Shown: in pieces, positions 12,553 to 47,076 of the stretch
How the letters are laid out: each line of letters begins with the position of its first letter
How positions within the stretch are numbered: the first letter of the stretch is position 1
Assembly (NCBI GenBank): GCA_018656065.1
Contig: JABHZY010000024.1
Coordinates: 5,227 to 69,226, forward strand
DNA from: Candidatus Komeilibacteria bacterium
GTDB lineage: Bacteria; Patescibacteriota; Patescibacteriia; UBA1558; GWA2-36-10
Length of the DNA: 64,000 nt
Direction: 5' to 3'
Notes under the pieces: model-generated
Database searches by the model: none
Seen by the model: the letters and a program-made list of their open reading frames with translations, nothing else
Told to the model about the DNA's origin: nothing
Made by a program: the position numbers and the translations under genes

Positions 12553-12581
12553 TTGACAAATATTAATATCTATGTTATAGT
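12553..12581 (+). promoter_or_regulatory. promoter of RNA A
   Basis: TTGACA, 17 nt, TATAGT. Confidence 0.65.
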
Positions 12582-12587
12582 GAGTAA

Positions 12588-12710
12588 TCACCCAAGGAAG
12601 GTGAAACTTATCTGGACCAGCAAAGTCCAAAAGATCCCCCGCTGCTGGCGTTCGTCCCCCGTTTTCTCCTCACATGGAGAATTCTAGAACGCCAGCAGCC
12701 CCCCTTTTTT
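12588..12710 (+). ncRNA. orphan GC-rich small RNA A (about 123 nt), family unknown
   Basis: Starts downstream of a consensus promoter. Hairpins CACC/GGTG and TGGAC/GTCCA. A 13-bp stem (12641-53 / 12687-99) encloses a CUCC/GGAG hairpin. Ends in T6. No ATG ORF with an RBS. Confidence 0.55.
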
Positions 12711-12759
12711 ATAAGGGTTTTTTGTTTATTTAAAAATTTAGCTAAAATGAAAAAAGGGA

Positions 12760-12969
12760 CCTTACGATCAGATCCCTCTTCTTCCACCCCAGCACATGGG
12801 CCAGAATGGGTGCTCCCTATAAGGAAGCTGAGAAAGCGGCGTTCCGGATTAGCGTGTCGGTCTTCACGAAGGTTCAGCTTTACACTAATGACCTAGTGAA
12901 GTTTTAAACCAATTACATCAAATCCAGATGCCTACTTTACATTGTTGGTACGTTTGCTTTTTGAGCACA
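12760..12969 (-). ncRNA. orphan GC-rich RNA B (about 210 nt), family unknown
   Basis: Minus-strand promoter at 12976-13004. 3' hairpin GGGAUC/GGUCCC (12766-86) plus U6. Its U.G pair is valid only on the minus strand. Only ORFs of 16 codons or fewer. Confidence 0.55.
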
Positions 12970-12975
12970 AAAAGA

Positions 12976-13004
12976 ATAATATCACATATAGATATATTTG
13001 TCAA
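12976..13004 (-). promoter_or_regulatory. promoter of RNA B
   Basis: TTGACA(13004-12999), 17 nt, TATTAT(12981-12976) on the minus strand, directly after the M23 gene terminator. Confidence 0.6.
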
Positions 13005-13009
13005 TAGTA

Positions 13010-13040
13010 AAAGCCCCTATAGAAAAGGGGCTAATTTTAG
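13010..13040 (-). terminator. intrinsic terminator of the M23 peptidase gene
   Basis: AGCCCCT/AGGGGCT hairpin followed by a T run on the minus strand. Confidence 0.65.
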
Positions 13041-13060
13041 TTAAAATTTTATAGTATTAA

Positions 13061-14314
13061 TTAAGGCAGATAATTCAATGGATTAACAGGAATTCCGTTT
13101 AGACGTACTTCTAAATGAAGATGAGGTCCAGTAGAAAATGGTCCAGCTCCTCTAGTACCAGGCATACCACCAGTATAGCCGATAATATCCCCTTTAGAGA
13201 CAAATTGATCAGCGCTAACATTTATTTTATTAACATGACCATAGACACTAGATAGACCATCAGCATGGACTAGCATAATATAGCTATAACCAGTTGCTCC
13301 TCCATCTCTAGCTTTAGCTACGTAACCTGACTCTGCAGCTCTAAGAGCAGTGCCTTGTGGAGTAGCAATATCTATGGCATTATGTTCAAAAATATATCTA
13401 TAAGGATAATCTGGATCATGGAAATAAGCAGTTATCCGTTGTGATGGTATGGGCCACATTAATCCATCGCTATCAATACTATCTAATTGTAATTGACGGT
13501 TTAATTTTTCTCGAGCAATTTTTTCTAGATAAACTATATCATTATCAATTTGTTTTTGCTCTTCTTTAGCCTGACGAAGCAATTCTTGATATTTAGCTTC
13601 TTGACCTTCAGTAGAAGCCATTAAATTGAACTTTGATATTTTTTGTCCGTCTAAATTTCCTTTTTTACCATTTAATATATTTTTCAGAGTATCTAATTCA
13701 GTTTTTTCATTTTCTAAACTATCTTTATCATTATTTAAGGCTAATTTTATTTCTCCAAGATTTTCTACTCCTTCAAAAAGATTATCTTGCATATCTTCTA
13801 ACCTATTTAGGTCAGCTATAAAATCACTAAAATTATCATTTAGTATTAAAATTTCTAGCAAACTAGATTTTTGTTGTTGTCTATGTAGAGATCTAATTAC
13901 TTCAGCTAAGATGTCTTTTTGGTCATCTATCTCGTTTTCTTTAGCGTCTATCTTTAATTCAGTATTTTCTATTTTTAAATCAAGAGTTTCAACTTCTAAA
14001 CCAGCTGCTTCAATTTCTAAATTAATTTTAGCAATACTTTCATTAAGAGTACTAACTTGGTTAGAAAGACTGCCTAGTTCTTTTTGTTTAGCATAGATAT
14101 TTTTTTGATAGATATCTATTTGTCTATGTAATTCTTGAATTTCTGATCTTTTAGCATTAATATCCTGATTTACTTGCCATGTTTCCACAGTATCTAAGGT
14201 ATCTAATTTATACTCTACGGCTAAGCCGTTATTTGGCAAAAAAATAAAACTAAGCAGTGCTATAGTTAATATACTGGATAATACTCTAATAGTTTTTATT
14301 TTTATTTGTAGCAT
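13061..14314 (-). CDS. M23 family metallopeptidase with long coiled-coil (EnvC-like)
   Basis: Signal/TM N-terminus and about 250 aa of coiled coil. C-terminal HNAIDIA...GPHLHLEV LytM motifs. Confidence 0.9.
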   Translation of the reverse strand: MLQIKIKTIRVLSSILTIALLSFIFLPNNGLAVEYKLDTLDTVETWQVNQDINAKRSEIQELHRQIDIYQKNIYAKQKELGSLSNQVSTLNESIAKINLEIEAAGLEVETLDLKIENTELKIDAKENEIDDQKDILAEVIRSLHRQQQKSSLLEILILNDNFSDFIADLNRLEDMQDNLFEGVENLGEIKLALNNDKDSLENEKTELDTLKNILNGKKGNLDGQKISKFNLMASTEGQEAKYQELLRQAKEEQKQIDNDIVYLEKIAREKLNRQLQLDSIDSDGLMWPIPSQRITAYFHDPDYPYRYIFEHNAIDIATPQGTALRAAESGYVAKARDGGATGYSYIMLVHADGLSSVYGHVNKINVSADQFVSKGDIIGYTGGMPGTRGAGPFSTGPHLHLEVRLNGIPVNPLNYLP

Positions 14315-14368
14315 GGTTTATTAAATATAACTATATTATAGCATATTTATACTATATTGGCAAGAAAA

Positions 14369-15796: not shown

Positions 15797-15801
15797 ATAT
15801 T

Positions 15802-21306: not shown

Positions 21307-22269
21307 TTATTTATTTTCTTTAGCTTGCCTTGCTTGAGCTAGCTTGGCTCTCATATTTTGTCTAACTTCATCGTTAGCATTTATAGATATCATACTTGCT
21401 GCCAGATCTAAATTACCAGATTTTAATAATTCTTCAAATAATTTTCCACTTGCTCTATCCAGAAATTCCTGACCTCCACTGTGATTTATTTTCGTTTTAT
21501 TAGCAAATAGCCATTTTCCGGATGTAACAAAATCATCATTATCAAGTGCTTCAATGAAAGCAAAATCATCCAATGATTCAGCTTCTTTTTTCTCTTTTTC
21601 CATCTTTTTAAAAACATCTCCCCATAAATCTTCTATCTCTTGTGTTCTAGCCTCTGTTTCTGGTATATCTGGCATAGCTTCTTCCTCTGCTATAGCCTCT
21701 CCCATGGCTTGTTTTTCAGCTGCTAATGGATCAATTAATTCTGTTGACTCCATAACATCTTTAAGATTTTTTGCTCTACCCTCTTTAGATCTTCCTTCGG
21801 GTAAAATATCTATCATTCTTTGAGCACCATCAAAATCTCCAGTATCACGATAAGCTCTAAACAAATCTCCACTTCTGTGGTCTAACCATCTTTCGTTATT
21901 TTCATATTTTCCGTCTTTAACAGATTCTAACCATGCTTCGGCTTTAGCCGTGTCTCCAGAAATAATGGCTTTATCAAAATCTTTTGTATTTTCAATACCT
22001 TCTTCTTGTTCTACTGAAGTTTCATTAGCATCTTGAGTAACTTGCTCTAATCCCATAGATTCTCTTTGAGCAGCTAGAGCATCAATATCTTCTGCCCCTA
22101 CTTTTTGAGCATAAGCTTTATCGGCAGCTATTTCATCTGCTGATATCTCACCTGTTACTGACTCCATATTTTCTGGAGCTTGCTCAACAGGGTTATTCTC
22201 GTTGTCTGGCGTAAGTTTTTCTTTTTCACTCATATGTTTTATTTTACTTTTTTCTTTTCTGTAACCCAA
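21307..22269 (-). CDS. acidic hypothetical protein
   Basis: 320-aa ORF rich in E and D. The start may instead be the ATG at 22233, which avoids overlap with the upstream gene. Confidence 0.55.
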   Translation of the reverse strand: MGYRKEKSKIKHMSEKEKLTPDNENNPVEQAPENMESVTGEISADEIAADKAYAQKVGAEDIDALAAQRESMGLEQVTQDANETSVEQEEGIENTKDFDKAIISGDTAKAEAWLESVKDGKYENNERWLDHRSGDLFRAYRDTGDFDGAQRMIDILPEGRSKEGRAKNLKDVMESTELIDPLAAEKQAMGEAIAEEEAMPDIPETEARTQEIEDLWGDVFKKMEKEKKEAESLDDFAFIEALDNDDFVTSGKWLFANKTKINHSGGQEFLDRASGKLFEELLKSGNLDLAASMISINANDEVRQNMRAKLAQARQAKENK

Positions 22270-23759
22270 AAACCTAAATATTTACCAAGCATCAATCTAG
22301 TTTGAGCATCTATAGCTGGTATAGAACCAAATATTATCATAGTAATTGGAAATATAATCCACTGTAATAACATTAGCAAATATTTAAAAGGTTTCATAAT
22401 TCTGGAACCTCTTTGTTTTGGCGGTATTGGCGGTAAGATAAATACACTCATTAAGGCAATTAAAATCATACCCACCATTCCAGAACGCATTAAGTTTTCT
22501 AGCATCAAAGGCGCGTTTTGAGTTAAGACACTAGTTAAGCCTTGTTTTTCAGCTAAATATAGAGGCAAATAACCCATGATAAATATTAACATTGGTGCAG
22601 TAGCCCAAGTATACACTCCTTCGGTCTGGTTCCAAGTATAAACCAATTTTTTATTGAAGGGCATTTTTTTATTTTTAGCAAATTGCCAAACCATATATGG
22701 AAAATGTTCTACTCCGTAAGCCCAACGACGCATTTGTTTATATTGATTTACCAAACTACGCCAGATATTCCCAACGTAAACAGTGTTCATTGATACAGGG
22801 ATATGCATTGGTTCTACTTCATAGTCACCATCATAATGTATCAAGCATTGTAAAAATATACGAGAGTCTTCAGTTACTATATTATTTTGCCAAAATCCAA
22901 TATCTACTAGTGCTTGCCAACTCATTGAATGGGAAGAAAAAGTAAATAATCTTTCTGGACGAGCCAAATCAGTTAATAACCAAAAAGTAGTGGAGTTAGC
23001 TACTACTCTAGTAATTGGATCAGATTCCCAAATGTTATTATGATAAAAAGCCATTGGTTGAAAAGAGGTTCGGTATGGATTTTTATGTGAAATAAATTTA
23101 TGGGTCAAGTAAGCAAAATAGTCTGGATGAGAAATAGTATCTACATCAAAAGCTGAGACAATAAGTTTTTTATAATCAAAACCTTCGGCATCAATATATT
23201 TTTTAACCTCATATCCAGCATGATAAAGATTAGAGCCCTTGCCTTTAATTTCGCCTTCTAAATTATCAGGATGAACAGTTATGATTATTTTATGAAAAAT
23301 ATCTTGGTATTTTTCTTTTATTTTATTAGCCAGAGGAACAAATTGTTCTTCATAACGACCCTCTCCAGCTAAAATTATTATCATTTGTTTTTGATCGTAT
23401 TTAGTTTTCCTAGCCAGATTATTAAAAGTAACATCAACAACCTCAAATGGCTCACCAGCAGTGGGTAAAAATACAATATGATGATATTCACGCCAGTGTT
23501 TATTGTGAGTATGTTTTAGAAATTGCCACCAGTCTACTTTAGTAGCTCGCCTATATTTAAACCAAGAAAGTAATAAAAATATAAGCATATAAGTAATACG
23601 CAAAACAAAATAGACATCAAAAATTATAACAAAATATATACCATATAATGGTGAGATAAATGATAGAGATATGGTAATAATAAAAGTAAGCCAGACCATC
23701 ATGCCAGGCATTATTTCTAGATTTCTATACTTATAATAGTCTTTATATTCTTGTTTCAT
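22239..23759 (-). CDS. membrane-embedded processive family 2 glycosyltransferase
   Basis: Multiple TM helices. FDVDT and TEDSRIF motifs plus the Q-x-x-R-W signature (QYKQMRRWAYG). Confidence 0.8.
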   Translation of the reverse strand: MKQEYKDYYKYRNLEIMPGMMVWLTFIITISLSFISPLYGIYFVIIFDVYFVLRITYMLIFLLLSWFKYRRATKVDWWQFLKHTHNKHWREYHHIVFLPTAGEPFEVVDVTFNNLARKTKYDQKQMIIILAGEGRYEEQFVPLANKIKEKYQDIFHKIIITVHPDNLEGEIKGKGSNLYHAGYEVKKYIDAEGFDYKKLIVSAFDVDTISHPDYFAYLTHKFISHKNPYRTSFQPMAFYHNNIWESDPITRVVANSTTFWLLTDLARPERLFTFSSHSMSWQALVDIGFWQNNIVTEDSRIFLQCLIHYDGDYEVEPMHIPVSMNTVYVGNIWRSLVNQYKQMRRWAYGVEHFPYMVWQFAKNKKMPFNKKLVYTWNQTEGVYTWATAPMLIFIMGYLPLYLAEKQGLTSVLTQNAPLMLENLMRSGMVGMILIALMSVFILPPIPPKQRGSRIMKPFKYLLMLLQWIIFPITMIIFGSIPAIDAQTRLMLGKYLGFWVTEKKKVK

Positions 23760-24835
23760 AAACTATACCGATCACTTTCTATGCCAACTGCCTCAGAAAT
23801 ATGTTTATAATTATCGTGTTGAATTATATTTTCTAGTTGTCTGTTTATGATATTTACAGCAGTAGGGCCATTATAAATTAGGCCCGTAATTAATTGCACT
23901 AAATTGGCACCAGCTTTAATTTTTTTGTAGGCATCATGTCCTGAAAAAATACCACCTGTTCCTATAATTTTATATTTACCTTCACTATGTTGATAAAGAT
24001 AAGCAATTATTTCATTAGATTTATCTCTGGTAGGCTGACCTGAAATACCACCTGGTTTATCTTGATTCTTTGATTTTAGATTTAAACTAGCTTTATCCTT
24101 AGCTAGATTAGAAGCAATAATAGCACTAATATTATATTTCTTAGCTAAATAAATAATATCATCTAGCTCTTCTTTGGACAAATCTTGACCAATTTTTAAC
24201 CAAATTGGCTTTTTAGATTTATTTATAGATTGTATTCTGTCTAAAATTGGTTCTAGTAATTTTTTTGACTGCAAACCAGTAAAACCAGCTACATTTGGAC
24301 AAGAAAGATTAATAGTAACAATATCAGCATGTTCTGCTAATATTTCAAAGCTAGCCTGATAATCATCGGCTGCTTTTTCCATAGCTACATTACTAGTTTT
24401 AGCAATACTAGCAGATATTAAAGCAGTTTTTGTTTTAAGTACCTCGGCTATTTTTTTAGCGCCTTGGTTGCATAAGCCATAATAAACAACTAAAGCTTTA
24501 TCTTTTGGTAGTCTCCAAAGCCTAGGCTTTGGGTTGCCTTCTTGGGCTTGATGAGTAATAGAGCCAATTTGAGCCCAAGCAAATCCCATAGCTGACCAAG
24601 TATTGATAGCTTTACCATTTTTGTCTAAACCAGCTGCTAAGCCAACTGGATTTTTAAAGTATAAGCCAAATAATTTTTGACGTAATCTAGGTGAAGTATA
24701 GTTTAACCTAGATTTTAATAACTTATTTAATAATTTTGATTTACTAAAAAAAGATAAGCCCCATAATGTAAAATCATGGATTTTTTCTGGATCAGTTAGA
24801 AATAGAATGGGTCTAATAATTTTTTGGTAAAACAT
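23756..24835 (-). CDS. pyrD: dihydroorotate dehydrogenase, class 2 type
   Basis: 359 aa with the N-terminal extension of class 2 enzymes. NLSCPN and GTGGI motifs. Confidence 0.92.
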   Translation of the reverse strand: MFYQKIIRPILFLTDPEKIHDFTLWGLSFFSKSKLLNKLLKSRLNYTSPRLRQKLFGLYFKNPVGLAAGLDKNGKAINTWSAMGFAWAQIGSITHQAQEGNPKPRLWRLPKDKALVVYYGLCNQGAKKIAEVLKTKTALISASIAKTSNVAMEKAADDYQASFEILAEHADIVTINLSCPNVAGFTGLQSKKLLEPILDRIQSINKSKKPIWLKIGQDLSKEELDDIIYLAKKYNISAIIASNLAKDKASLNLKSKNQDKPGGISGQPTRDKSNEIIAYLYQHSEGKYKIIGTGGIFSGHDAYKKIKAGANLVQLITGLIYNGPTAVNIINRQLENIIQHDNYKHISEAVGIESDRYSL

Positions 24836-25172: not shown

Positions 25173-25201
25173 TTGACAGAAGAAAATTTTAGGAATATAA
25201 T
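25173..25201 (+). promoter_or_regulatory. promoter of RNA C
   Basis: TTGACA, 17 nt, TATAAT (exact consensus). Confidence 0.7.
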
Positions 25202-25207
25202 ACAGCA

Positions 25208-25358
25208 ATTCAAGAGTACATGTTCAAGGAACAGAACGAGGAAATTAGGTGGGGCCTTTCCTTAGTTGGCTATTTAGTGAGCATCGGCACAGGCCACTGC
25301 TCGTTTTATCCAACGAAACGTACTCGGCTGCGTACGTTGTTCTGTTCCTCTCTTTTTC
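25208..25358 (+). ncRNA. orphan GC-rich structured RNA C (about 150 nt, four-way junction), family unknown
   Basis: Closing stem 25228-38 / 25335-48 with one G.U valid only on the plus strand. Three internal hairpins: AGGAAA/UUUCCU, GUUGG/CCAAC enclosing GAGCA/UGCUC, and ACGUAC/GUACGU. A U run follows the closing stem, and a second hairpin lies at 25362-84. Confidence 0.55.
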
Positions 25359-25401
25359 TATAACCAAGTCCTATGGGCTTGGTTTTCACTGTAATCAAAA
25401 A

Positions 25402-26286: not shown

Positions 26287-26595
26287 TTATGATTCGTCTA
26301 ATATTATTTTTTTATCAAAACCACCTCTTTTATTAAATTTATCTTGTTTGATCTTTGCTATTTCTTCTTTATTAAAGCCGTATAATTTACAAATAGCATC
26401 AATTACTTCATAAATATCAGCTATTTCAGTAATATCTTCTGATTCTATAAATTCATTAGCTTCTTCTAGTAATTTAGCTTTTAATTTAATCTTGTATTCG
26501 TCGTCACTAGCAATATGAGTAACAGGCTGGCCGTTATTAGTAATAATTATTTCGGGAATTTTATCACGAATTAACTTGTTGTATTTTTTAGACAT
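26287..26595 (-). CDS. MazG-like / PRA-PH-like nucleoside triphosphate pyrophosphohydrolase
   Basis: 102 aa. KLIRDKIPEII...EEANEF...EIADIYEVIDAI all-alpha NTP-PPase pattern. Confidence 0.7.
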   Translation of the reverse strand: MSKKYNKLIRDKIPEIIITNNGQPVTHIASDDEYKIKLKAKLLEEANEFIESEDITEIADIYEVIDAICKLYGFNKEEIAKIKQDKFNKRGGFDKKIILDES

Positions 26596-27118
26596 CTTCT
26601 TCCCCTTCTTCTAGTTCTTCTATTTCTAATTCCTTATCTTCCTTTATTATTTCCTCCTCCTCTGGTTCTGGTTCTTCTTCTACTTCGTCTGGTTCAGGTT
26701 CTGGTTCTTCTTCTACCACTTCCTCTTCTACTTCGTCTGGTTCAGGTTCAGGTTCTGGTTCACTATTTGATGCTGCTGCACCACCTTCGCCATCTCCATC
26801 ATTTAATTCATCTAAAAGTTCATCTAGAGTAGAATTTTCTACTGAAAATAAAGTCTCTACAGTATCGTATAATTGATCCAACAAGTCTCTTGCTTCCTCG
26901 TCTAATGTATCTGATTGCACACGTTCGATTAGAGCTCCATTTCTCTTGTATATTGATAATCTATAAAGACCATTGGAAATCTTATTAAGATTCAAAACAC
27001 CACTGTTTAAACTTAAGTTATAGTAATCTTGAGAGCGGTGTTCCCAAGTATAAGACCCATTGTTAGTTTTTATTACTAATCTATTGAGTATATTTCTTAT
27101 TCTGTTTGGATTACTCAT
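26588..27118 (-). CDS. hypothetical protein with acidic Pro-Glu repeat tail
   Basis: 176-aa ORF. C-terminus reads EPEPEPEPDEVEEEVVEEEPEPEPDEVEEEPEPEEEE. Confidence 0.55.
   Translation of the reverse strand: MSNPNRIRNILNRLVIKTNNGSYTWEHRSQDYYNLSLNSGVLNLNKISNGLYRLSIYKRNGALIERVQSDTLDEEARDLLDQLYDTVETLFSVENSTLDELLDELNDGDGEGGAAASNSEPEPEPEPDEVEEEVVEEEPEPEPDEVEEEPEPEEEEIIKEDKELEIEELEEGEEDV
26640..26770. repeat. imperfect tandem duplication encoding the PE/acidic repeat
   Basis: The unit cttctacttcgtctggttcaggttc... occurs twice about 50 nt apart inside the CDS. Confidence 0.6.
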
Positions 27119-32216: not shown

Positions 32217-32309
32217 ATTATTATAATTCAAAAAATTTACTGTTTTTACAGTAAATCTGTATATATTTTAGTAAATTATAGCTTAAAAGTCAACTTATTT
32301 TAGTAAGTT

Positions 32310-32610
32310 AAAAACCCTGTCAGAGTACGAAGAAGCTGAAAGGGGGTTCAGCAGCTCGTTGATCACGAAGTGATCCTCTGACAGGGTGTGTCGTGGTGGA
32401 CCTTGATTAGGTTCCGCTCCGCTCTGATCGTGTGGCAGCGCTAGGCAATTTATTACCTAAATCAAGGTCCAACTATATTAATAGGGTCATCGGTGGAGGT
32501 CTGCTATAGCTGCTGGATCTAAAAGATCCATTGGCTTGGGTGCGTACACAGCCACAGCCACAGCCTCATGGAGGAGAGAAAGACACATCGATGACCCAAG
32601 AACATATAAC
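32310..32610 (-). ncRNA. orphan GC-rich structured RNA D1 (about 300 nt, three domains); strand tentative
   Basis: Three domains: an 11-bp stem 32315-25 / 32376-86 closing a three-way junction; a 15-bp stem 32398-412 / 32455-70; and a 12-bp stem 32484-95 / 32586-97. On the minus strand it is preceded by TTGACT-17-TATACT and ends in U5. One G.U in the third stem favours the plus strand instead. Confidence 0.45.
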
Positions 32611-32616
32611 CGAGCC

Positions 32617-32645
32617 AGTATATATTATATACTAAAGATAGTCAA
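32617..32645 (-). promoter_or_regulatory. candidate promoter of RNA D1
   Basis: TTGACT(32645-40), 17 nt, TATACT(32622-17) on the minus strand. Confidence 0.4.
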
Positions 32646-32661
32646 TATCTAGCAAATAAAC

Positions 32662-33120
32662 AAAAAAAAGTACCGGTCCCCCGCGTGAAATACGAGGGAC
32701 CGGCGAGAAAGGCTGCTACGAGCAAGCGTCGACGGGTTGAAGTATATTCTCTCCAGTTGGGACAGGATACCCCGGTCGGAGTTTGAGTCAACAGACAACA
32801 TGCTGGGGTCGCAAATCCCAGCGCTCCTTGAAACGGTCCTTGAAGGACCAGGTGCTTGCTTGCAATAGCAGCCACTTACAGTGGCCATCGCATTTTGATT
32901 GAATAGATCTGAGAGAGACGCCGGCGTTCCGTAGAACAGGTGTGATATGCTAGTCAAAGGCGCTAGCAGGCACACTGATGGTCTTGTCTCCCTATCCAGG
33001 GCAATCGTAAATTGATGGTCACTACCATCGTGTCGTATCTCCGTATTCTCGGACTTGTTTTTCCCTCCTAAGAAGTGTATTATGACACGCTGGCTTTAAA
33101 ATTGATGAACCCTTCTTGAC
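32662..33120 (-). ncRNA. orphan GC-rich structured RNA D2 (about 460 nt), family unknown
   Basis: Minus-strand promoter at 33127-56. Many local hairpins, including GAUGGU/ACCAUC, GCUAG/CUAGC, GCCAC/GUGGC, GGUCC/GGACC and GCUGGG/CCCAGC. An 11-bp terminator stem (32673-32703) has a U.G valid only on the minus strand and is followed by U8. The ORFs in this region run through the terminator. Confidence 0.55.
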
Positions 33121-33126
33121 TATTTA

Positions 33127-33156
33127 ATTTTAGACTAAACAAAGTAATATTGTCAA
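33127..33156 (-). promoter_or_regulatory. promoter of RNA D2
   Basis: TTGACA(33156-51), 18 nt, TAAAAT on the minus strand. Confidence 0.6.
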
Positions 33157-33207
33157 GAGTTTAGCTAATTTATCCACAAATATACTTAATTTATTGATTT
33201 TACAAGC

Positions 33208-33236
33208 TTTACAAAAATATATAAATATTATATTAT
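33208..33236 (+). promoter_or_regulatory. candidate promoter of the leader-peptide / 70-aa gene unit
   Basis: TTTACA, 17 nt, TATTAT. The ATG of the leader ORF lies 7 nt after the -10 (leaderless). Confidence 0.5.
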
Positions 33237-33243
33237 TTAGTTT

Positions 33244-33306
33244 ATGAAACAAATCAGCCAAACATATTATTTTCTTTGGCGTAACACTTATATTGATAAG
33301 TGGTGA
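33244..33306 (+). CDS. candidate 20-aa leader peptide MKQISQTYYFLWRNTYIDKW
   Basis: ATG at the predicted TSS. 6 of 20 residues are aromatic. The ORF covers segment 1 and segment 2 of the alternative structures. Confidence 0.4.
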   Translation: MKQISQTYYFLWRNTYIDKW

Positions 33307-33373
33307 TTTGTTATTTAGTTTTTAAATTTATATTAAATATCAGTTCGTCGCTTATCAATAAGCGATTTTTTTT
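33285..33373 (+). promoter_or_regulatory. candidate transcription attenuator (1:2, 2:3, 3:4 alternative hairpins)
   Basis: 1:2 hairpin CACTTAT/ATAAGTG (33285-302). 2:3 pairing ATTGATAAG (33292-300) with CTTATCAAT (33351-59), 9 perfect bp and extendable with wobbles. 3:4 terminator TCGCTTA-TCAA-TAAGCGA (33348-65) plus T8. Confidence 0.5.
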
Positions 33374-33413
33374 GTTTTTCGTCACTATCACTCTAGAGCC
33401 AAGGAGGGCCACA

Positions 33414-33626
33414 ATGCCCTGTACACTCAGCAAAGGTCAAGATGTTCGGAATATTGGAACTGGTGAAGCCCATATTATCACTGATATGCGCAAAACTCCT
33501 CCTCGTCAAATTGTTGGAGGTTGGGGGTCTGATGTCGTAGAATATACTCACATCCAGGTAGATGGGCAAACTAACAACGATGGGCATCCGGTTTGGCAAG
33601 CCTCTGGTGATTTCGAAGAAATCTAA
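33414..33626 (+). CDS. orphan GC-rich small protein (70 aa)
   Basis: Strong SD AAGGAGGG 5 nt before the ATG. Protein-like composition. Own terminator. The GTG at 33300 in the track is an unlikely start. Confidence 0.7.
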   Translation: MPCTLSKGQDVRNIGTGEAHIITDMRKTPPRQIVGGWGSDVVEYTHIQVDGQTNNDGHPVWQASGDFEEI

Positions 33627-33658
33627 GACTTGCTTTGGAGTAAGAGGAGCAAAAAGAA

Positions 33659-33690
33659 AGAGAGGTGCTAAGCGCCTCTCTTCTTCTATT
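33659..33690. terminator. terminator shared by the 70-aa gene and the convergent LRR gene
   Basis: AGAGAGGTGC-taa-GCGCCTCTCT hairpin with T-rich flanks on both strands. Confidence 0.6.
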
Positions 33691-33707
33691 TATAATTTTG
33701 TAATCCC

Positions 33708-40779: not shown

Positions 40780-41568
40780 TTAATATTGTCCTTTGCCTTT
40801 ATATTTTCCACTACGTACAGCTTCAGCTCCGCCTATCTCTGCCTGATTTGTTTTATGGTAGGCTTCAGAGGCAGTGAATTCAGATAAAATTTTCTCAATC
40901 ATTTCTGGCTGATCTTTATAACGTTCACGTAAAAAATCTTCTGCTGCTAAAAACTTAACTTCCATTGAGACTAGCTCTGGCTTCTTTTCCTTCATTGCTT
41001 CCCAAAAAGCTTCAGCTCTATCAAGACGTAAATCAAGTAAGAGGAAAGCTACTTTAGTTAATCCCTCGGCATGAGCAAGCTCTATTGAATTTTCAACATC
41101 ATCCTGAGTAGTTTTAGTCTTATCAAGTATTTTTATATTTTCATTACCTAAATTTTCAGAAGCATTAGTTTCTCTTTCAAATACTTCCATCATAGGTCCA
41201 GCTTCACTTAAAGAAGGATTATCGGCTGCATGTTTATCAAGAGCAGCAGCACGTCCTGCGGCAAAAATAACTAGCTTTGGAGGAACCCCCTTTTTTACTA
41301 GATCTTCATAATATTGCGCTGCAGCCAATGTTACGGCATTACCTCCACCAACAATGGCATTTTCACCGTCTTTATCTAAGTCTAAGTTCCTTTCTGCTGT
41401 TCGCCAGCCTTTATCATCAACTTCTTGAATAAGACGCGTAGGCTTCCATTTTTCTTCTCCTTTGACATCTACACGTTCAATACTATGCCCAGGAACAACA
41501 ATGACTTCTGCCTGATACAATTCTGACGGTTCTTGTTCTGCAGATAATTTTTCTCTATTAAACTTCAT
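40780..41568 (-). CDS. hypothetical protein (262 aa)
   Basis: ORF with no signal peptide. The ATG lies 6 nt after a TACAAT -10. Family not recognised with confidence. Confidence 0.55.
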   Translation of the reverse strand: MKFNREKLSAEQEPSELYQAEVIVVPGHSIERVDVKGEEKWKPTRLIQEVDDKGWRTAERNLDLDKDGENAIVGGGNAVTLAAAQYYEDLVKKGVPPKLVIFAAGRAAALDKHAADNPSLSEAGPMMEVFERETNASENLGNENIKILDKTKTTQDDVENSIELAHAEGLTKVAFLLLDLRLDRAEAFWEAMKEKKPELVSMEVKFLAAEDFLRERYKDQPEMIEKILSEFTASEAYHKTNQAEIGGAEAVRSGKYKGKGQY

Positions 41569-41574
41569 AGCTTT

Positions 41575-41607
41575 ATTGTAGCTTATTTTAGAAAAACAAA
41601 AAAGCCC
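41575..41607 (-). promoter_or_regulatory. conserved 33-nt promoter motif, copy 1
   Basis: Minus strand GGGCTTTTTTGTTTTTCTAAAATAAGCTACAAT. Nearly identical to the copies at 43270 and 43941. Confidence 0.55.
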
Positions 41608-41621
41608 AAAAATTTGGGCAA

Positions 41622-41802
41622 AAGAAAAAAGATTGAGAGGGGTTGGTGTGAAAGAAAAAGTGTTGATGGGGTTTGTTGTTGTGTGATAAGTGTGCAGTGT
41701 TGGGGATGCACTTTCTACTGCCTAACTTTTAAGCTTCAGAAAGCACATCCACAATCACTATACTTATCTTCCCTACGATTTCTTTCTACTCTCAATCTTT
41801 GA
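41622..41802 (-). ncRNA. orphan rod-like RNA E (about 180 nt), family unknown
   Basis: TTTACA-16-TATTAT promoter (41836-41809, minus). 11-bp closing stem 41629-39 / 41789-99 followed by U6. 13-bp apical stem 41704-16 / 41748-60 with two wobble pairs valid only on the minus strand. The 3' arm is CA- and C-rich. Confidence 0.55.
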
Positions 41803-41863
41803 GTCCTAATAATAACATATCTATAAAATATGTAAAGTCTAAGTTATACACAAGGTGTCCATT

Positions 41864-43243
41864 TTAATTCACTACTATTACACTATTTAAATCAGGATCT
41901 CCACTAACAGTATAAGTGCCATAAGTATTAATTTTCCAGACAAAGTAAGCTTGACCATTATCATCGGCTACTATTATTTGTCGTTTTGCTGCGACTACTC
42001 CTGGACCAGCTAAGGACAAAGTCATTTCAGTACCTGGGACAGTGGCTATAGCAGCGTAAATTTCACTGTATTCTCCTGGCTTAACATGTTCAAAAGAAGT
42101 TTGCATTACTATACTAAGTTCTTGTCCATCAAATTCTCCAACTAATCCACTAGTTTCCGTTTCGGTCATTGGATCAAGAGCTGTACCACTACTTAAAGGA
42201 GTTTCCCAAATTTGAACAAAACCCCAACTTAATGCTGTAATACCTTCGTAAGGACCATAATTTGTTATTCGATTACTACGCACCTCTACGGTCTCTGACC
42301 CTTCTTCAGCATCTGTGTAAGGATCATTGATATCTAAATAAGTTTGACCATCACCCTGATGAATCCCAGTAACAGTTACCATATGTCCACCAGTAGATTT
42401 ACCATCTGCATTAGCAAACTTTATACGTAATTCAACAGAAGCACCTTTTTCTAAAGCCTCTCTAATAGGATCTATAGTTTCAATGCCGTGTGTATCACCT
42501 ACTTTTGTAGTTCTAATTGGCAAGCCATGTCTAGCTGCCCAAAGATTTTTACCAGTTACAAAATCATCAGACTGAACACCATTAGCCATATTCCATTTCA
42601 TATCTTCTTTCAGCTCCTCTATCAATTCTTCTGGTTTTATAGATTTGTCTTCAGCATCTCCATGTTGATTTATGAGCGAGATTAAACCATTGGCTGCTGC
42701 GGTAGGAGCGCACTCACCTTTTTTTTGATCTATATCAGGTACATTCTCTTGAGTTATTTCAATTAATCCGTCATCAGCATAGACCAAATTAACTCCTAGG
42801 CCTTTCATAGCTTCTTCTGGATTGGTAATGGTGTCCAAATCCATTAACTCACTTAAATCAGATATTTTTATACTTACATTTTTACTAACACTTTCATCAT
42901 CAAGTTGGACTAAAATATTTTGTTCTTCAACAAAATTATCTGGCGCTTTAAAATATACTTTATTTCTTTTATTAGCTTTAGCTAAGACCATCATATCTTT
43001 AACTAGCCATTCAGTAGCTTCAAATATTCCGTTGTTATCTGAATCTATGGCTAAACTTAATTTACTTCTACTATCTTCACTTGCTAAAAAGTTGATTCCT
43101 AGGGCAGCATTGCCATTATTATAGCTAATAAGGCTTAAATCTGAGCCCAAAACAGCTATATCAGGCTCCTTATCCTGACCTTTTAGTAAGAATATAGCTA
43201 TTATAACTATAATTATTACAATAATTGGTATTATTTTCTTCAT
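41864..43243 (-). CDS. membrane-anchored surface protein with a papain-like (C39-like) cysteine peptidase domain
   Basis: N-terminal TM helix. KKGECAPTAAANGLISL (candidate catalytic Cys) and STGGHMVTVTGI...NDPY (candidate His/Asp). Confidence 0.6.
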   Translation of the reverse strand: MKKIIPIIVIIIVIIAIFLLKGQDKEPDIAVLGSDLSLISYNNGNAALGINFLASEDSRSKLSLAIDSDNNGIFEATEWLVKDMMVLAKANKRNKVYFKAPDNFVEEQNILVQLDDESVSKNVSIKISDLSELMDLDTITNPEEAMKGLGVNLVYADDGLIEITQENVPDIDQKKGECAPTAAANGLISLINQHGDAEDKSIKPEELIEELKEDMKWNMANGVQSDDFVTGKNLWAARHGLPIRTTKVGDTHGIETIDPIREALEKGASVELRIKFANADGKSTGGHMVTVTGIHQGDGQTYLDINDPYTDAEEGSETVEVRSNRITNYGPYEGITALSWGFVQIWETPLSSGTALDPMTETETSGLVGEFDGQELSIVMQTSFEHVKPGEYSEIYAAIATVPGTEMTLSLAGPGVVAAKRQIIVADDNGQAYFVWKINTYGTYTVSGDPDLNSVIVVN

Positions 43244-43269
43244 ATATTTATATTAAAGATTATAATTTT

Positions 43270-43302
43270 ACTATAGCTTATTTTAGAAAAACAAAAAAGC
43301 CC
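43270..43302 (-). promoter_or_regulatory. conserved 33-nt promoter motif, copy 2
   Basis: Minus strand GGGCTTTTTTGTTTTTCTAAAATAAGCTATAGT. Confidence 0.55.
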
Positions 43303-43340: not shown

Positions 43341-43934
43341 CTAAATAATTTTAAATGCTATTAAGATAGCAATAATAATTAAACTTGCAGCGGCAAGTTC
43401 TTTTTTAAATCTTAACTTATCTACTCTTTCTGCAAAATAAATTGCAATTGATACTTGTATGAGTGTAGCTACATATATGCCTATGATAACTAAAGTTTTT
43501 TCGTAGAAATTACGCTCTAAAAAAATAGGCACAATCACAATAATATCATCCAGTATAGTTAAAAAAGATATAACAAAGCCTAGACCTATTAATTCCAGAA
43601 AACGAGCATTACTTATCTTTTTTATTTTGGCCACTTCTTTGGCTGTTTGTTTTTTACGCTCTGGCATAAAAAGACCAAAATAAATACCAATAGCTAAGGT
43701 AATAATAATACCAGCGATAATATAACGTACACCCGGAACACTTTTAATAGCTTCTGAAAATAAAATAGCCAAAATTATAGCTGCGGTAAGTGATAATAAT
43801 GTACCAATTGAAAAAGCTACTTTACCGAGCCTTGTTTTGGTAAGTGATGCAATGACTGGAATTCTAGTTAATGTATCATCAAAGCTAGCTACTGCTTTTA
43901 CTAAAAAACCTAAACTTATATTTTTGAATATCAT
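43341..43934 (-). CDS. integral membrane protein (197 aa, about 6 TM helices)
   Basis: Hydrophobic throughout. The ATG lies 6 nt after a TATGAT -10. Confidence 0.6.
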   Translation of the reverse strand: MIFKNISLGFLVKAVASFDDTLTRIPVIASLTKTRLGKVAFSIGTLLSLTAAIILAILFSEAIKSVPGVRYIIAGIIITLAIGIYFGLFMPERKKQTAKEVAKIKKISNARFLELIGLGFVISFLTILDDIIVIVPIFLERNFYEKTLVIIGIYVATLIQVSIAIYFAERVDKLRFKKELAAASLIIIAILIAFKII

Positions 43935-43940
43935 GACTGT

Positions 43941-43973
43941 ATCATAGCTTATTTTAGGGAAACAAAAAAGCCC
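43941..43973 (-). promoter_or_regulatory. conserved 33-nt promoter motif, copy 3
   Basis: Minus strand GGGCTTTTTTGTTTCCCTAAAATAAGCTATGAT. Confidence 0.55.
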
Positions 43974-43979
43974 CTAGGA

Positions 43980-44008
43980 TTGACAATATTAGTATAAAAT
44001 AGTTATAT
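43980..44008 (+). promoter_or_regulatory. promoter of the 139-aa gene
   Basis: TTGACA, 17 nt, TTATAT. Divergent from motif copy 3. Confidence 0.55.
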
Positions 44009-44058
44009 GTAGTTGTTAGTATAGTTCTTGTCACAAACCTCGGAAAGAGGGTGTCATT

Positions 44059-44478
44059 ATGTACTGGAAAAATGATGCTGAAGCAATCGCATTTTTACAA
44101 TCGCGCGGACAACTAATCCCTATGGATCCTAAAGACATCAGAGAAGTTGCCACATTAATTCTTGATTTAGAATTAAAGAGGGCTAGAGAAGCTGAAGAGG
44201 CAGCTGAAAAAAGAACTGCTAGAGAAAAAAGAGGTCTCCGAAATTGGGATATAATCAAAAGAGGTCGCGAAGTTGTAGAAGCTGAAGAGGCAGCTGAAGA
44301 AGCTCGCATCAGACAGGCTGCAGCCGATGAATTTAAGCGACGAAAAGAAGCTGAGGAGGCGGCTAATCGTTGTTCATCATGCGGTAAAATTAAAAAAACC
44401 TGTAACACATGCAGTACGACGGTATGTTGTGGAACAAACATAAGTGGGTACTGCTGGCATTGCTGGCATGATGATTGA
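44059..44478 (+). CDS. orphan GC-rich protein (139 aa): charged helical region plus Cys-rich C-terminus
   Basis: SD AGAGGGTG before the ATG. EAEEAAE repeated three times. Tail CSSCGKIKKTCNTCSTTVCCGTNISGYCWHCWHDD. Own terminator. Confidence 0.65.
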   Translation: MYWKNDAEAIAFLQSRGQLIPMDPKDIREVATLILDLELKRAREAEEAAEKRTAREKRGLRNWDIIKRGREVVEAEEAAEEARIRQAAADEFKRRKEAEEAANRCSSCGKIKKTCNTCSTTVCCGTNISGYCWHCWHDD

Positions 44479-44479
44479 A

Positions 44480-44513
44480 GAGCGTTCGAAAATTCGGGCG
44501 CTCGTTTCTTTTT
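44480..44513 (+). terminator. intrinsic terminator of the 139-aa gene
   Basis: GAGCGTTCGAA/TTCGGGCGCTC stem with two U.G pairs valid only on the plus strand, followed by a T-rich run. Confidence 0.6.
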
Positions 44514-44619: not shown

Positions 44620-44979
44620 TTATTTTTGTCTGTCTGATTTCCAATTATTATAATCTACACAGCTTTTACCATCCCAACAAAACTTTTCACCACAAGTACA
44701 CTGCTCTCTATATGATTCTTCTAGACTACACGTATAATCAATATGCCCTTGCATCCCCTCATTTTCAAGCTGTCTTTCACAGCTTGGCGGCGGCGCGCAG
44801 GAAGTAATTGTTTGCCATTCACCTCCACTAATTTTACAATCTATCTCTATATCGCCAGTTAGCTTATTTTTTTTAACTTCTTCTCGTACAACTTCTTCTT
44901 TACTACTATTATATTCTTTCCAAACAAATACTCCTCCAAATATAATAGCTGAAATTAAAATGGATAAAATAATTTTCAT
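44620..44979 (-). CDS. small secreted/anchored Cys-rich protein (119 aa)
   Basis: N-terminal hydrophobic helix. 10 Cys in the mature part. Confidence 0.55.
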   Translation of the reverse strand: MKIILSILISAIIFGGVFVWKEYNSSKEEVVREEVKKNKLTGDIEIDCKISGGEWQTITSCAPPPSCERQLENEGMQGHIDYTCSLEESYREQCTCGEKFCWDGKSCVDYNNWKSDRQK

Positions 44980-45041
44980 AATTTTGATATTTATTTAAAT
45001 AACGTCCTTAGTATAACAAAAAAAAGGTAGTAGGATTCGAA

Positions 45042-46106
45042 CTAAACTATATTCCCACTGGCAATCAACTCATCTTTTTTATAAACAGCCAATATCTGTC
45101 CCGAAGCTACGCCAGCTTGAGATTTTTTAAACTCAGCTATTAGATCTCTCGACTTCGCTCGAGATGACAAAACGATGTCTTGACCAGGCTGTCGATAGCG
45201 GATTTGAGCCTTAGCTTTAAGAGGTAATTTATGCTCCTTACCAAGCCAATGTAAATCAGTCATTTGAACACTTTTGTTGTACAGAGCCTCATCATCTACA
45301 TGACCGACTATAAGTTTGTTATTTTTAATATCTTTAGATACTACATACCATGGACCAGAACCACCAATATCCAAACCTTTCCTTTGTCCAATCGTATAAT
45401 ACCAAACACCTTGATGCTCACCCAAGACATTACCTTTAGTATCGACTATCTCCCCTGTCTTAGGTTTTATTTTTTGTTGTAAAAATATTTTAAGATCTAC
45501 TTTACCAATAAAACAAATTCCCTGACTATCTTTACGGTCAGCATTTGGTAGTTTGGCTTGCTTAGCAATTTTACGAACTTCAGGTTTCTCGATATCGCCA
45601 ATTGGAAAGACTGCTTTGGAAAGCTGGGTTTGATTTAAACCGGCTAGAAAATATGATTGGTCTTTATTTAGATCTTTACCTCTTAGTAAATGAAATCCAT
45701 CCTTATCTTCTTTGACTTGAGCATAATGCCCAGTAGCTATTTTATCAAAACCAAGTTTGATAGCTTTTTCTAAAAACAACTTAAATTTGATTTCATTATT
45801 ACATAAGACATCAGGATTTGGAGTCAGACCTGCCTTATAATTATCAAATATATAATTTACTACCTTGTCATGATATTCTGCTTCAAAATCAAAAGTCTGA
45901 ATAGGCACTTTAAGATGTGCAGCTACTCTATAAGCCATTAAACGGTCTTCTTTCCAAGGACAAGTGCCTTTAACATTCACTTTTTCGGAAAAGTTTTTCA
46001 TAAAGGCAACCTCTACTTCATAGCCTTGTTGTTGTAGTAAATACAAAGCCACAGCGCTATCTACACCGCCAGAAAGCCCTACTAAAATTTTGGTTTTCTT
46101 TGTCAT
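45042..46106 (-). CDS. mnmA: tRNA 2-thiouridine(34) synthase
   Basis: PP-loop VGLSGGVDS and conserved catalytic Cys regions. Confidence 0.95.
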   Translation of the reverse strand: MTKKTKILVGLSGGVDSAVALYLLQQQGYEVEVAFMKNFSEKVNVKGTCPWKEDRLMAYRVAAHLKVPIQTFDFEAEYHDKVVNYIFDNYKAGLTPNPDVLCNNEIKFKLFLEKAIKLGFDKIATGHYAQVKEDKDGFHLLRGKDLNKDQSYFLAGLNQTQLSKAVFPIGDIEKPEVRKIAKQAKLPNADRKDSQGICFIGKVDLKIFLQQKIKPKTGEIVDTKGNVLGEHQGVWYYTIGQRKGLDIGGSGPWYVVSKDIKNNKLIVGHVDDEALYNKSVQMTDLHWLGKEHKLPLKAKAQIRYRQPGQDIVLSSRAKSRDLIAEFKKSQAGVASGQILAVYKKDELIASGNIV

Positions 46107-46123
46107 TTTATTTAAACTGCGCT

Positions 46124-46618
46124 TTATTCACGACTTGTTATAATTAAATCCATAGAATCTTTTAATTCGGTTATTAATTTTACTTGATCAAGTCTTTCTA
46201 AATTACTATCTTCAATAATTGCACTAACTTGAGTCATGTCTACGTCATCTACAGTTCCGGCATCTCCTGCTTCAGCCATAAGAACTAGTAATTGATCTTT
46301 CCTCTCTTCATTGAGATCACTATGATCTATAATACCAATAATTTTATCCATATCTACATCATCCTGATTGGCCAAAGACTCTAATACACCATCTAGCATT
46401 TCATCTCTTAATTTCCGGCTTTCATCAGAATTAACTGGTTTTAATTTAGCCACTTGCTCAACAGCTGCAAATTCAGCTAGCGACATTACTTCAGCCGCTG
46501 GCAACTTAGCCTTATCTTTTATATCTTCTACCGGCCTAGGTTTACCTGCTAGTCTAGCACTTTTTGATCTTTTTTTAGGCGTATCTCCTATTAATTTAGC
46601 TCCTTCAAATTTATTCAT
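46124..46618 (-). CDS. acidic hypothetical protein (164 aa)
   Basis: ORF with a repeated DVDM..I..IIDxS(D/N)L pattern. No recognised family. Confidence 0.5.
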   Translation of the reverse strand: MNKFEGAKLIGDTPKKRSKSARLAGKPRPVEDIKDKAKLPAAEVMSLAEFAAVEQVAKLKPVNSDESRKLRDEMLDGVLESLANQDDVDMDKIIGIIDHSDLNEERKDQLLVLMAEAGDAGTVDDVDMTQVSAIIEDSNLERLDQVKLITELKDSMDLIITSRE

Positions 46619-46678
46619 ATGTTTATATATTACCTTAAAAATATAGCATGTAACTACTTGAATTTCAATTATTTAATC

Positions 46679-46707
46679 TTGACATAATCTTTAATATATT
46701 CTATTAT
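46679..46707 (+). promoter_or_regulatory. promoter of the 77-aa gene
   Basis: TTGACA, 17 nt, TATTAT. Confidence 0.65.
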
Positions 46708-46787
46708 ATTTTTTCACGTACATTTCGACCTGATAGCAAAATACTCTCCTGTCTCCATTAACCCCGATTTCTCTAACGGAGGTAAAG

Positions 46788-47021
46788 ATGAAAGCACCTA
46801 CCCTGGATTTTCCCAACGACGAAACAGCTGTGATCCTAATGCCCAATTGCCGTATAGCTACCGCTCTGCGCGAATTCCTCTTTGAACATGACTTCCATAT
46901 GAAGTCCCAAGATACTCAAGGAGGATTGATTATTCGGATACCAGCGGACGCGGACATTACTGAATCTAAGGAGCGTCTGCAGATTCTCTATGGCAAATTT
47001 TGCTATAAACAAGGTATTTAA
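46788..47021 (+). CDS. orphan GC-rich small protein (77 aa)
   Basis: SD GGAGGT 4 nt before the ATG. Protein-like composition. 5' UTR of about 75 nt. Own terminator. Confidence 0.7.
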   Translation: MKAPTLDFPNDETAVILMPNCRIATALREFLFEHDFHMKSQDTQGGLIIRIPADADITESKERLQILYGKFCYKQGI

Positions 47022-47045
47022 GGTGTCGCCTAAACGGTAATACCT

Positions 47046-47076
47046 AAAAAGGCCAATCCTTCGGGGGCGGCCTTTT
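47046..47076. terminator. terminator (GGCC...UUCG...GGCC hairpin)
   Basis: AAAAAGGCCAATCCTTCGGGGGCGGCCTTTT between convergent genes. Confidence 0.65.

Follow-up and report, generated by a model that had tools for sequence, protein, structure and literature searches.

The G+C-rich islands lying between the genes of a 64-kb stretch from a Candidatus Komeilibacteria bacterium (the window, 32.2% G+C over its whole length) are probably nine separate small genes, located in and beside a segment of variable gene content that runs from mnmA to alaS. The units, designated A, B, C, D1, D2, E, F, G and H (Table 1), are a collection of small genes and not one system. Six of them (A, B, C, D1, E and F) would be stand-alone RNAs of ~135-460 nt, each with its own predicted promoter and terminator, and D2, G and H encode small proteins. 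On comparative evidence C, D1, F and one protein unit, D2, appear to be functional; A, B and E remain candidates. The units are lineage-restricted small genes, new examples of a known signal type and not a new kind of system; what is new is the RNA families themselves together with a predicted leader-peptide attenuator in a genome of the candidate phyla radiation (CPR).

Relatives of the window were collected through AlaRS (L002 and L003) and through MnmA homologues (L091, L092, L093, L094, L095, L098, L099 and L100); the gene order of L092 is that of L003, evidently the same genome. A further locus, L096, came from one metagenome pattern scan built on the unit C hairpin and is 86% identical to L091 over 8.3 kb. 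In the window, C immediately precedes alaS on the same strand, with D1 in tandem upstream of C. Both L091 and L096 carry two tandem promoter-to-terminator units upstream of alaS and on its strand, which align with D1 and C in the same order, the D1 homologues being ~360 nt long. A homologue of F adjoins greA in L091 and occupies the matching position in L096. C is folded into three long hairpins, the last of which is the terminator (fold z-score -8.3), D1 reaches a z-score of -4.3, and F is one long hairpin (z-score -6.7); on its 3' arm are an unpaired C/A-rich stretch whose length varies and an invariant unpaired ACCAACCCCU.

The base pairs of these RNAs are kept between genomes by changes on both sides. 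For F, 94.4% of the cells of 54 predicted pairs are paired and 11 of the pairs show changes on both sides, compared with 4.0 +/- 1.5 in shuffled and 0-3 in slid controls; the corresponding values for C are 64 predicted pairs, 90.5% and 12 pairs against 5.8 +/- 1.7 and 1-5, and for D1 103 predicted pairs, 88.3% and 18 pairs against 7.8 +/- 2.1 and 1-5. None of 500 shuffles reached the observed number of two-sided changes for F, C or D1. For instance, the closing stem of the first hairpin of C reads GGGUCAUCG/CGAUGACCC in the window, GGGUCACCG/CGGUGACCC in L091 and GGGUCGCCG/CGGCGACCC in L096, and the middle of the second hairpin changes from GAUUUAGG/CCUAAUC in the window to GGGCUGGG/CUCAGUCC in L091 and L096. 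Since paired positions of C, D1 and F change together between genomes, their folds are under selection. The collection of homologues and test of covariation proposed in an earlier note on this DNA, made from its letters alone, have in this way yielded homologues with compensatory changes above shuffles for three units, that is, three covariation-supported non-coding RNA families absent from Rfam. Profiles of C, D1 and F run with nhmmer against all 100 loci found no further members, and a scan of viral contigs with the C hairpin pattern found none.

The protein unit D2 is represented in four of the relatives, with homologues of 70-71 aa encoded by L091, L093 and L096 and a related protein of 61 aa by L098. 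All five D2 genes are G+C-rich and have AAGGAGG before the start codon. D2 has no match in Pfam, in NCBIfam or, by tblastn, in phages, and its AlphaFold2 model made without an alignment (pLDDT, the predicted local distance difference test, of 50) is unusable. The islands behave as separate small genes, as the description of them as self-contained units had implied, with the exception that the start of D2 had been misplaced: its unit begins ~170 nt earlier, at an A+T-rich leader-peptide attenuator. No other non-coding sequence seen was as conserved as this leader (84% mean column identity, alignment A8). In five genomes it holds an open reading frame (ORF) of 20-21 codons in which the frame and a Phe/Tyr/Trp run are kept, with the peptides MKQISQTYYFLWRNTYIDKW (window), MKQIKANFFFFWFNAYIAKW (L091), MRQIKPNFFFFWYNPYIVKW (L096), MKQINQKFYFFWLDAYFVKW (L093) and MKILIHQFNKFFFFSPAIGRW (L098); the aromatic runs are YYFLW, FFFFW, FYFFW or FFFF, and every peptide ends in W-stop.

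The 5' arm of the antiterminator spans the end of the leader ORF, its stop codon included, plus a further 11 nt. Its second arm includes the 5' arm of the terminator, with 33347-33360 shared by both structures, so that the two helices are mutually exclusive. Across the five genomes 98.4% of antiterminator cells are paired; one position varies as U-G, A-U, C-G and G-U, and in L098 the change at column 119 of alignment A9 is compensated in both helices, turning A-U into G-C in the antiterminator and U-A into C-G in the terminator. Helix 1:2, in which codons 2-5 AACAAAUCA pair with UGAUUUGUU at the stop codon over 9 bp, is found in four of the five genomes and is shifted in L098. An in-frame codon cluster, exclusive antiterminator and terminator helices overlapping the end of the ORF, and helix 1:2 are therefore all present, and by its sequence the D2 leader has the predicted architecture of a ribosome-mediated attenuator. 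The D2 transcript would start with the 20-21-codon ORF, containing a Phe/Tyr run, a Trp codon and a second Trp codon at its end. We infer the direction of control as follows: a ribosome at the stop codon would cover the 5' arm of the antiterminator, allowing the terminator to form and transcription to stop before D2, while a ribosome stalled at the aromatic codons would leave the antiterminator free, so that D2 is transcribed. D2 itself is an old and conserved gene that would be controlled by this attenuator, and long residence with selection on the motif is the best reading of its history.

Table 1. Units of the window with their predicted signals, RNA genes at the alaS slot of relatives, and G+C of the islands in 200-nt windows (background near 0.30)
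Feature	Position	Strand	Description
Unit A	12553-12727	+	promoter TTGACA-17-TATAGT at 12553-12581; predicted RNA ~135 nt from ~12589
Unit A structure	12641-12700		long hairpin; terminator hairpin 12702-17, then U run
Unit B	12745-13004	-	promoter TTGACA-17-TATTAT at 13004-12976; predicted RNA ~220 nt, 12968 to 12745
Unit B terminator	12782-12750	-	found by scan
Unit E	25173-25392	+	perfect promoter TTGACA-17-TATAAT at 25173-25201; predicted RNA ~180 nt
Unit E 3' hairpin	25362-25384		weak U run only
Unit C	32305-32645	-	promoter TTGACT-17-TATACT at 32645-32617; predicted RNA ~300 nt
Unit D1	32660-33156	-	promoter TTGACA-18-TAAAAT at 33156-33127; predicted RNA ~460 nt
Unit D1 terminator	32704-32672
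D2 leader	33208-33413	+	promoter TTTACA-17-TATTAT at 33208-33236
D2 leader ORF	33244-33306	+	leaderless, 20 codons; starts seven nt past the -10 box
Helix 1:2	33248-33256 with 33304-33312		predicted pairing
Antiterminator	33291-33317 with 33334-33360		25 bp
Leader terminator	33347-33366		then eight U; found by scan
D2 Shine-Dalgarno site	33401-33407		AAGGAGG
D2 coding sequence	33414-33626	+	70 aa, 46% G+C; terminator 33658-33682; unit to 33690
Unit F	41598-41836	-	promoter TTTACA-16-TATTAT (with TG) at 41836-41809; predicted RNA ~200 nt
Unit F terminator	41619-41604
Unit G	43981-44512	+	coding sequence 44059-44478, 139 aa, 43% G+C; Shine-Dalgarno GAGG; terminator 44480-44503; weak promoter
Unit H	46679-47080	+	promoter TTGACA-17-TATTAT at 46679-46707; Shine-Dalgarno GGAGGT
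H coding sequence	46788-47021	+	77 aa, 44% G+C, third-position G+C 0.44; hairpin 47047-47076
RNA gene, L003	5629-5930		upstream of alaS; fold z -7.3
RNA gene, L002	5034-5345		upstream of alaS; fold z -4.4
RNA gene, L094	12300-12745		upstream of alaS; fold z -4.8
RNA gene, L095	12855-13232		upstream of alaS; fold z -6.4
Patch	12.6-12.9 kb		G+C 0.44-0.455
Patch	25.2-25.4 kb		G+C 0.44
Patch	32.3-33.1 kb		G+C 0.435-0.54
Patch	33.4-33.7 kb		G+C 0.435-0.475
Patch	44.1-44.5 kb		G+C 0.42-0.46
Patch	46.7-47.1 kb		G+C 0.425-0.465

The position held by D1 and C is itself a recurrent feature, as a strongly folding, G+C-enriched RNA gene of ~280-460 nt lies upstream of alaS in six distinct sampled genomes. 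The alaS-slot RNAs of L002, L003, L094 and L095 each have their own promoter and terminator, and no sequence similarity to D1 or C was detected in their bodies. The promoter region of D1 aligns with that of L002, whereas the RNA bodies do not, and motifs common to the L002 and L003 RNAs gave chance-level matches when searched in the window. The slot holds either one very fast-evolving RNA at a fixed locus or RNA genes acquired repeatedly. After the terminator stands a separate alaS promoter (TTGACTTTTTAGCTTAAATTTACTAAAAT), the best-conserved part of the spacer, and in L002 a 198-aa ORF lies between the RNA and alaS. The AlaRS encoded next to the slot (30480-32231, minus strand) is just 583 aa long: it has the catalytic and second additional domains but lacks a long C-terminal part. 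All relatives have this short version too, as do many Spirochaetota and Clostridia matches. By its AlaRS protein the window was assigned to contig JABIEH010000018.1 (291 kb) of GCA_018651305.1, which NCBI lists as Candidatus Komeilibacteria.

The transcription signals of the units were assessed against the background of the region. Promoters were scored out of 12 against the sigma-70 consensus, and their rank within the region was used. For eight of the nine units, the predicted start lies shortly past a site that ranks among the best sigma-70 matches of the region (12/12 for E; 11/12 for A, B, D1 and H; 10/12 for C, D2 and F); the promoter of G is weak and falls below the scan cut-off. As a class, promoter-like sites barely exceed shuffles (74 vs 62 and 83 vs 65), so the promoter argument rests on rank and position and not on counts. 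Terminator-like hairpins reach ~2-3 times the shuffled expectation (18 vs 8.4 and 17 vs 5.6). Terminators were detected by scan for A, B, D1, D2, F and G, and reading of the sequence gave a clear hairpin and U run for C and H; the U run of E is poor. The earlier claims of a near-consensus promoter and of a closing hairpin with a U run at every unit accordingly hold with one exception each, G for the promoter and E for the U run. The further claim that wobble pairs fix the strand stands for the B, D2 and G terminators; folding energy does not distinguish the strands of E. The fold z-scores of the six RNAs against dinucleotide shuffles range from -4.3 to -8.3, and the G+C enrichment of the RNA units would be what stable helices require in a 32% G+C genome.

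The covariance-model search of Rfam that had been recommended was run, and no island matched any of the 4227 families of Rfam 15 at gathering score, nor at E up to 5 over the whole region or E up to 10 over short stretches. The failure to recognize tmRNA, RNase P, SRP, 6S or T-box RNAs by eye in the six RNAs is in this way borne out at relaxed thresholds as well. ARAGORN found no tmRNA, and Rfam searches of L002, L003 and L096 gave nothing relevant either; the only Rfam match in the window is a tRNA-Gln at 61092-61162. When each RNA was compared with 62 start regions by RNA duplex target prediction, G+C-rich start regions ranked first for every RNA, a composition artefact for which the prediction was discarded.

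A repeated regulatory module was also noticed. Three copies of a 61-nt module, 72-82% identical, lie at 41547-41607, 43242-43302 and 43913-43973. On the minus strand it consists of a terminator hairpin GGGC..GCCC with a U run, then CTAAAATAAGCTA, then the start of the next gene, making it a repeated terminator-plus-promoter cassette before three consecutive accessory genes.

Elevated G+C was measured at the positions where the earlier note had seen patches, the one at 41.6-41.8 kb being marginal (0.385 over 200 nt and 0.436 in one 100-nt window). Its statement that such patches occur only between genes is too strong, since parts of the coding sequence, such as secA at 28.2-28.4 kb, attain 0.41-0.45 as well. 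Despite these, the longest and richest segments of the window are the units, the longest being 32287-33099 (813 nt, 47.8%); one further long rich segment, 60970-61215 (246 nt, 0.463), contains the tRNA-Gln gene. The suggested check of intergenic G+C, carried out on the spacers of the window (intervals between ORFs of at least 90 aa), separated two clean groups: spacers with units or tRNA-Gln have a best 120 nt of at least 0.43 G+C, and all remaining spacers are at or below 0.38. Inside coding sequence, overlapping 42-nt direct repeats (26603-26761, TTC/TCT/GGT-rich on the plus strand) within a 176-aa gene at 26588-27118 produce a local peak of G+C and skew.

With secA, a short alaS, mnmA, an AMP phosphorylase-like gene, greA and secDF, the window has a gene content in keeping with a small CPR chromosome. 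The order secDF - sigma factor - DUF8128 - TrwB-like - AMP phosphorylase - mnmA ... greA ... alaS - S30AE - secA is shared with relatives, and the content between mnmA and alaS differs in every genome compared. Except for A/B and E, all units are located in the mnmA-alaS segment, in the spacer by alaS or, for H, in an insertion by mnmA. This placement in a variable segment accounts for much of the unit density, and the density of nine units in 35 kb, which had been called unusual, reflects the variable segment from mnmA to alaS and not one system.

The three small proteins that had been credited with strong Shine-Dalgarno sites were confirmed as D2, G and H. Among 62 genes of the window, 55 have no Shine-Dalgarno-like sequence whatever, four have a weak 4-5-nt match, and strong sites are restricted to D2 (AAGGAGG), H (GGAGGT) and G (GAGG). 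The same three genes have raised third-position G+C (0.29-0.44 vs 0.11-0.28 in other genes), and these shared traits are left unexplained, as a class, by the earlier reading of the islands as structured RNAs. In relatives, the rare ORFs with Shine-Dalgarno sites likewise tend to be G+C-rich accessory genes. The host belongs to Parcubacteria, a subgroup of which lacks the anti-Shine-Dalgarno motif in 16S rRNA according to a survey (PMC9297842). Many start codons of the window stand 7-20 nt past a -10-like box, which suggests leaderless or near-leaderless mRNAs. Strong Shine-Dalgarno sites, occurring in only a few small genes rich in G+C, are a simple marker of a special class, whether acquired or differently translated.

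G and H are species-restricted orphans, most likely acquired recently. The G protein combines a charged helical repeat region with a Cys-rich C-terminus; an exhaustive search of 1.84 billion representative proteins returned zero matches, and no Pfam, NCBIfam or phage match was found. It ends in CSSCGKIKKTCNTCSTTVCCGTNISGYCWHCWHDD (44359-44478, the C-terminus) after a leader-like region of ~100 aa, and a Peptidase_C39_2 protein is encoded 0.8 kb away (41864-43243). As judged from these features G resembles a post-translationally modified peptide precursor, with no modifying enzyme evident nearby. For H, the homology search returned the query alone; this word-indexed method also returned D2 alone, yet synteny found relatives of D2, so the method is word-limited. 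H belongs to no Pfam or NCBIfam family and has no phage match by tblastn, and the neighbours of the small proteins have no Pfam or NCBIfam family either. The context of H is the same in all 16 contigs carrying it. In L091, L092, L094 and L095 mnmA directly adjoins the AMP phosphorylase gene, whereas in the window H and a 164-aa ORF (46124-46618) lie between the two and hence form an insertion relative to these genomes (compared over window 46124-47084, L091 8478-11080 and L092 8500-11050). In a sister genome (protein P0004) three other ORFs are found at the H site, including an 83-aa gene on the opposite strand at the position of H.

Of the remaining RNA units, A (fold z-score -6.3) and B (-4.3) converge on each other, and the predicted fold of E is a multi-branch junction closed by a 12-bp stem, with z-scores of -5.2 on the plus and -5.7 on the minus strand. 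No homologue of A, B or E was found in any locus compared. The E spacer is identical in all five population contigs spanning it, which is uninformative as the flanks are equally identical. Two of the contigs, L102 and L103, match the window exactly across secA, the NUDIX genes, E and the chorismate mutase gene, and diverge sharply from within the dihydroorotate dehydrogenase gene onward (window ~22235-24500; contigs from position 3600), with a 504-aa glycosyltransferase-like allele replacing the 506-aa ORF of the window as the next gene. Their overall identity to the window is ~94-95%, and the point of divergence marks a recombination boundary.

The six RNAs may act in trans as regulatory or protein-binding RNAs. 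The C/A-rich unpaired arm of F, with AUCACAA-type repeats, looks most like a protein- or RNA-sequestering RNA, and the invariant unpaired ACCAACCCCU together with these repeats suggests a binding platform. Any function named for the RNAs is nevertheless a guess, and several further points weigh against reading the islands as separate small genes. The covariation comes from MAFFT alignments of three sequences, two of them 86% identical; the structures were derived from the same alignments, which inflates the slid control; and parts of D1 and the first hairpin of C differ in length between the window and L091/L096 and align poorly. The promoters and terminators are predicted by consensus matches only, and structure and signals are the sole evidence for the candidates A, B and E, for which no relatives were found. 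A stop-free frame of 103 codons (12588-12896, plus strand) passes through A and its terminator and is antisense to B. Finally, the attenuated gene D2 is not an amino-acid gene, which is unusual for the mechanism.

It is possible, although we hold it doubtful, that the islands are instead foreign fragments from higher-G+C, Shine-Dalgarno-using organisms or phages inserted in a hot spot, their G+C being a relic of origin. The protein units suit this origin: their third codon positions are richer in G+C, and they carry canonical Shine-Dalgarno sites that the genome otherwise lacks. The location of H within an insertion, the orphan status of G and H, and the gene content between mnmA and alaS, which is different in every relative, suit it as well. 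Relatives also carry other G+C-rich Shine-Dalgarno genes: a 3-kb island in L098 (8226-11375, at least 43% G+C in a locus of 37% overall), which holds a TPM-phosphatase gene and a pspA of 55% G+C with a Shine-Dalgarno site, looks like horizontally acquired DNA. C, D1, F and D2, in contrast, are kept across species by compensatory changes or protein conservation and have promoters of the native A+T-rich type, and the conserved D2 leader is A+T-rich and leaderless like native genes. In addition, the DNA of 32300-33700 (C, D1 and D2) has no blastn match in phage or plasmid collections, and the D2, G and H proteins have no tblastn match in phages. An unlikely combination, taken as a whole, is that the alaS slot holds one fast-evolving Komeilibacteria housekeeping RNA or ribozyme of 280-460 nt (D1 and the RNAs at that position in six sampled genomes), too diverged in sequence to be aligned yet with fixed promoter and position, and that the G+C-rich Shine-Dalgarno genes form a distinct translational class; if the latter were true, expression of D2, G and H might need a special initiation route or particular conditions.

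That one or more of the RNAs is a divergent housekeeping RNA (RNase P for D1, 6S for F, SRP or tmRNA) is quite unlikely, even though a structured RNA gene of this size upstream of alaS in six sampled genomes suits a single-copy essential RNA. In RNase P RNA the P4 strands (GGAAAGUCC and ACAGAA..GGCUUA) pair with each other. The strings GGAGGGGAAGAAAGAAGCGACUC and CAACCCGAGCUUAAG in D1 of L091, which we take to recall faintly the P4 strands of E. coli RNase P, do not pair with each other in either genome as read by eye and are not conserved in the window, where the AAGUCC motif differs from L091. 6S RNA forms a long hairpin (~180 nt) whose central bubble is two-sided and mimics an open promoter; F, with its long irregular hairpin of ~190 nt, large internal loop and own promoter and terminator, is similar, and the long hairpin itself is conserved, whereas its loop is confined to the 3' side, C/A-rich and variable in length (~18 to 45 nt). 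Models of RNase P, 6S, SRP and tmRNA gave no match at E up to 10 over 250-1100-nt stretches of the window and L096, ARAGORN gave no tmRNA, and the alaS-slot RNAs of more distant relatives share no detectable sequence. It is very unlikely that C and D1 are cis-acting leaders of alaS, T-box or riboswitch-like, and not independent genes. In L091, L096 and the window alike they immediately precede alaS on its strand, and the same slot holds a structured RNA in six sampled genomes; each nevertheless ends in a strong terminator, past which alaS has its own highly conserved promoter, and in L002 the 198-aa ORF intervenes. A T-box is characterized by a specifier loop, a T-box sequence and a terminator/antiterminator directly controlling the downstream synthetase gene, and no T-box model matched C or D1. 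Lastly, it is highly improbable that some of the units called non-coding are decayed genes or genes for small proteins. Open frames do exist (12588-12896 in A/B and a 108-codon GTG ORF at 32975-32649 in D1), the former with a Shine-Dalgarno-like AAGGAAGGTGA seven nt before a CTG at 12612. These frames have no ATG, GTG or TTG start at the right place and run across strong terminators, the frames in D1 and C are broken by indels between homologues, and substitutions in C and D1 follow base pairing and not codon periodicity; the frame at 12588-12896 is probably due to chance in G+C-rich sequence.

The reading of the islands as separate small genes, six for RNAs and three for proteins, places them beside a well-known signal, as G+C-rich intergenic regions (GC-IGRs) are an established mark of structured non-coding RNA genes in A+T-rich genomes (PMC6429828, PMC8632094, PMC11109978). 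Like GC-IGR RNAs, those described here lie in long intergenic regions well above the genome G+C and have strong folds, flanking promoters and terminators, and covariation between genomes, pairs being kept by compensatory change in C, D1 and F across three sequences. Different from earlier GC-IGR finds, the families match nothing in Rfam 15, have so far turned up in just three to five metagenomic genomes, all from a single Patescibacteria lineage, and share the signal with protein genes, which make up three of the nine islands. OLE, GOLLD, ROOL, HEARO and raiA are large bacterial non-coding RNAs of unknown function, and D1 (360-460 nt) and C (250-300 nt) are likewise large, multi-helix and stand-alone; they differ in having no sequence or model match, a very narrow distribution and fast sequence evolution. 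A large part of bacterial diversity belongs to the CPR, and to our knowledge almost nothing is known of RNA-based regulation in its members.

Leader-peptide attenuators are known from the trp, pheA, pheST and his operons. The D2 leader resembles them in the run of regulatory codons (FFFF(W), YYFLW) within a short ORF and in the series of a 1:2 helix, a 2:3 antiterminator over the end of the ORF and a 3:4 terminator just before the gene. It is distinct from them in that its ORF is leaderless, it occurs in a CPR bacterium, and the gene under its control encodes a 70-aa protein without a known family instead of a biosynthetic enzyme or tRNA synthetase. As a full-text literature search found no paper linking leader-peptide attenuation with Patescibacteria, the D2 attenuator is apparently the first described in a Patescibacteria genome, and it offers a way to test how an organism of limited biosynthetic ability might sense its supply of aromatic aminoacyl-tRNA.

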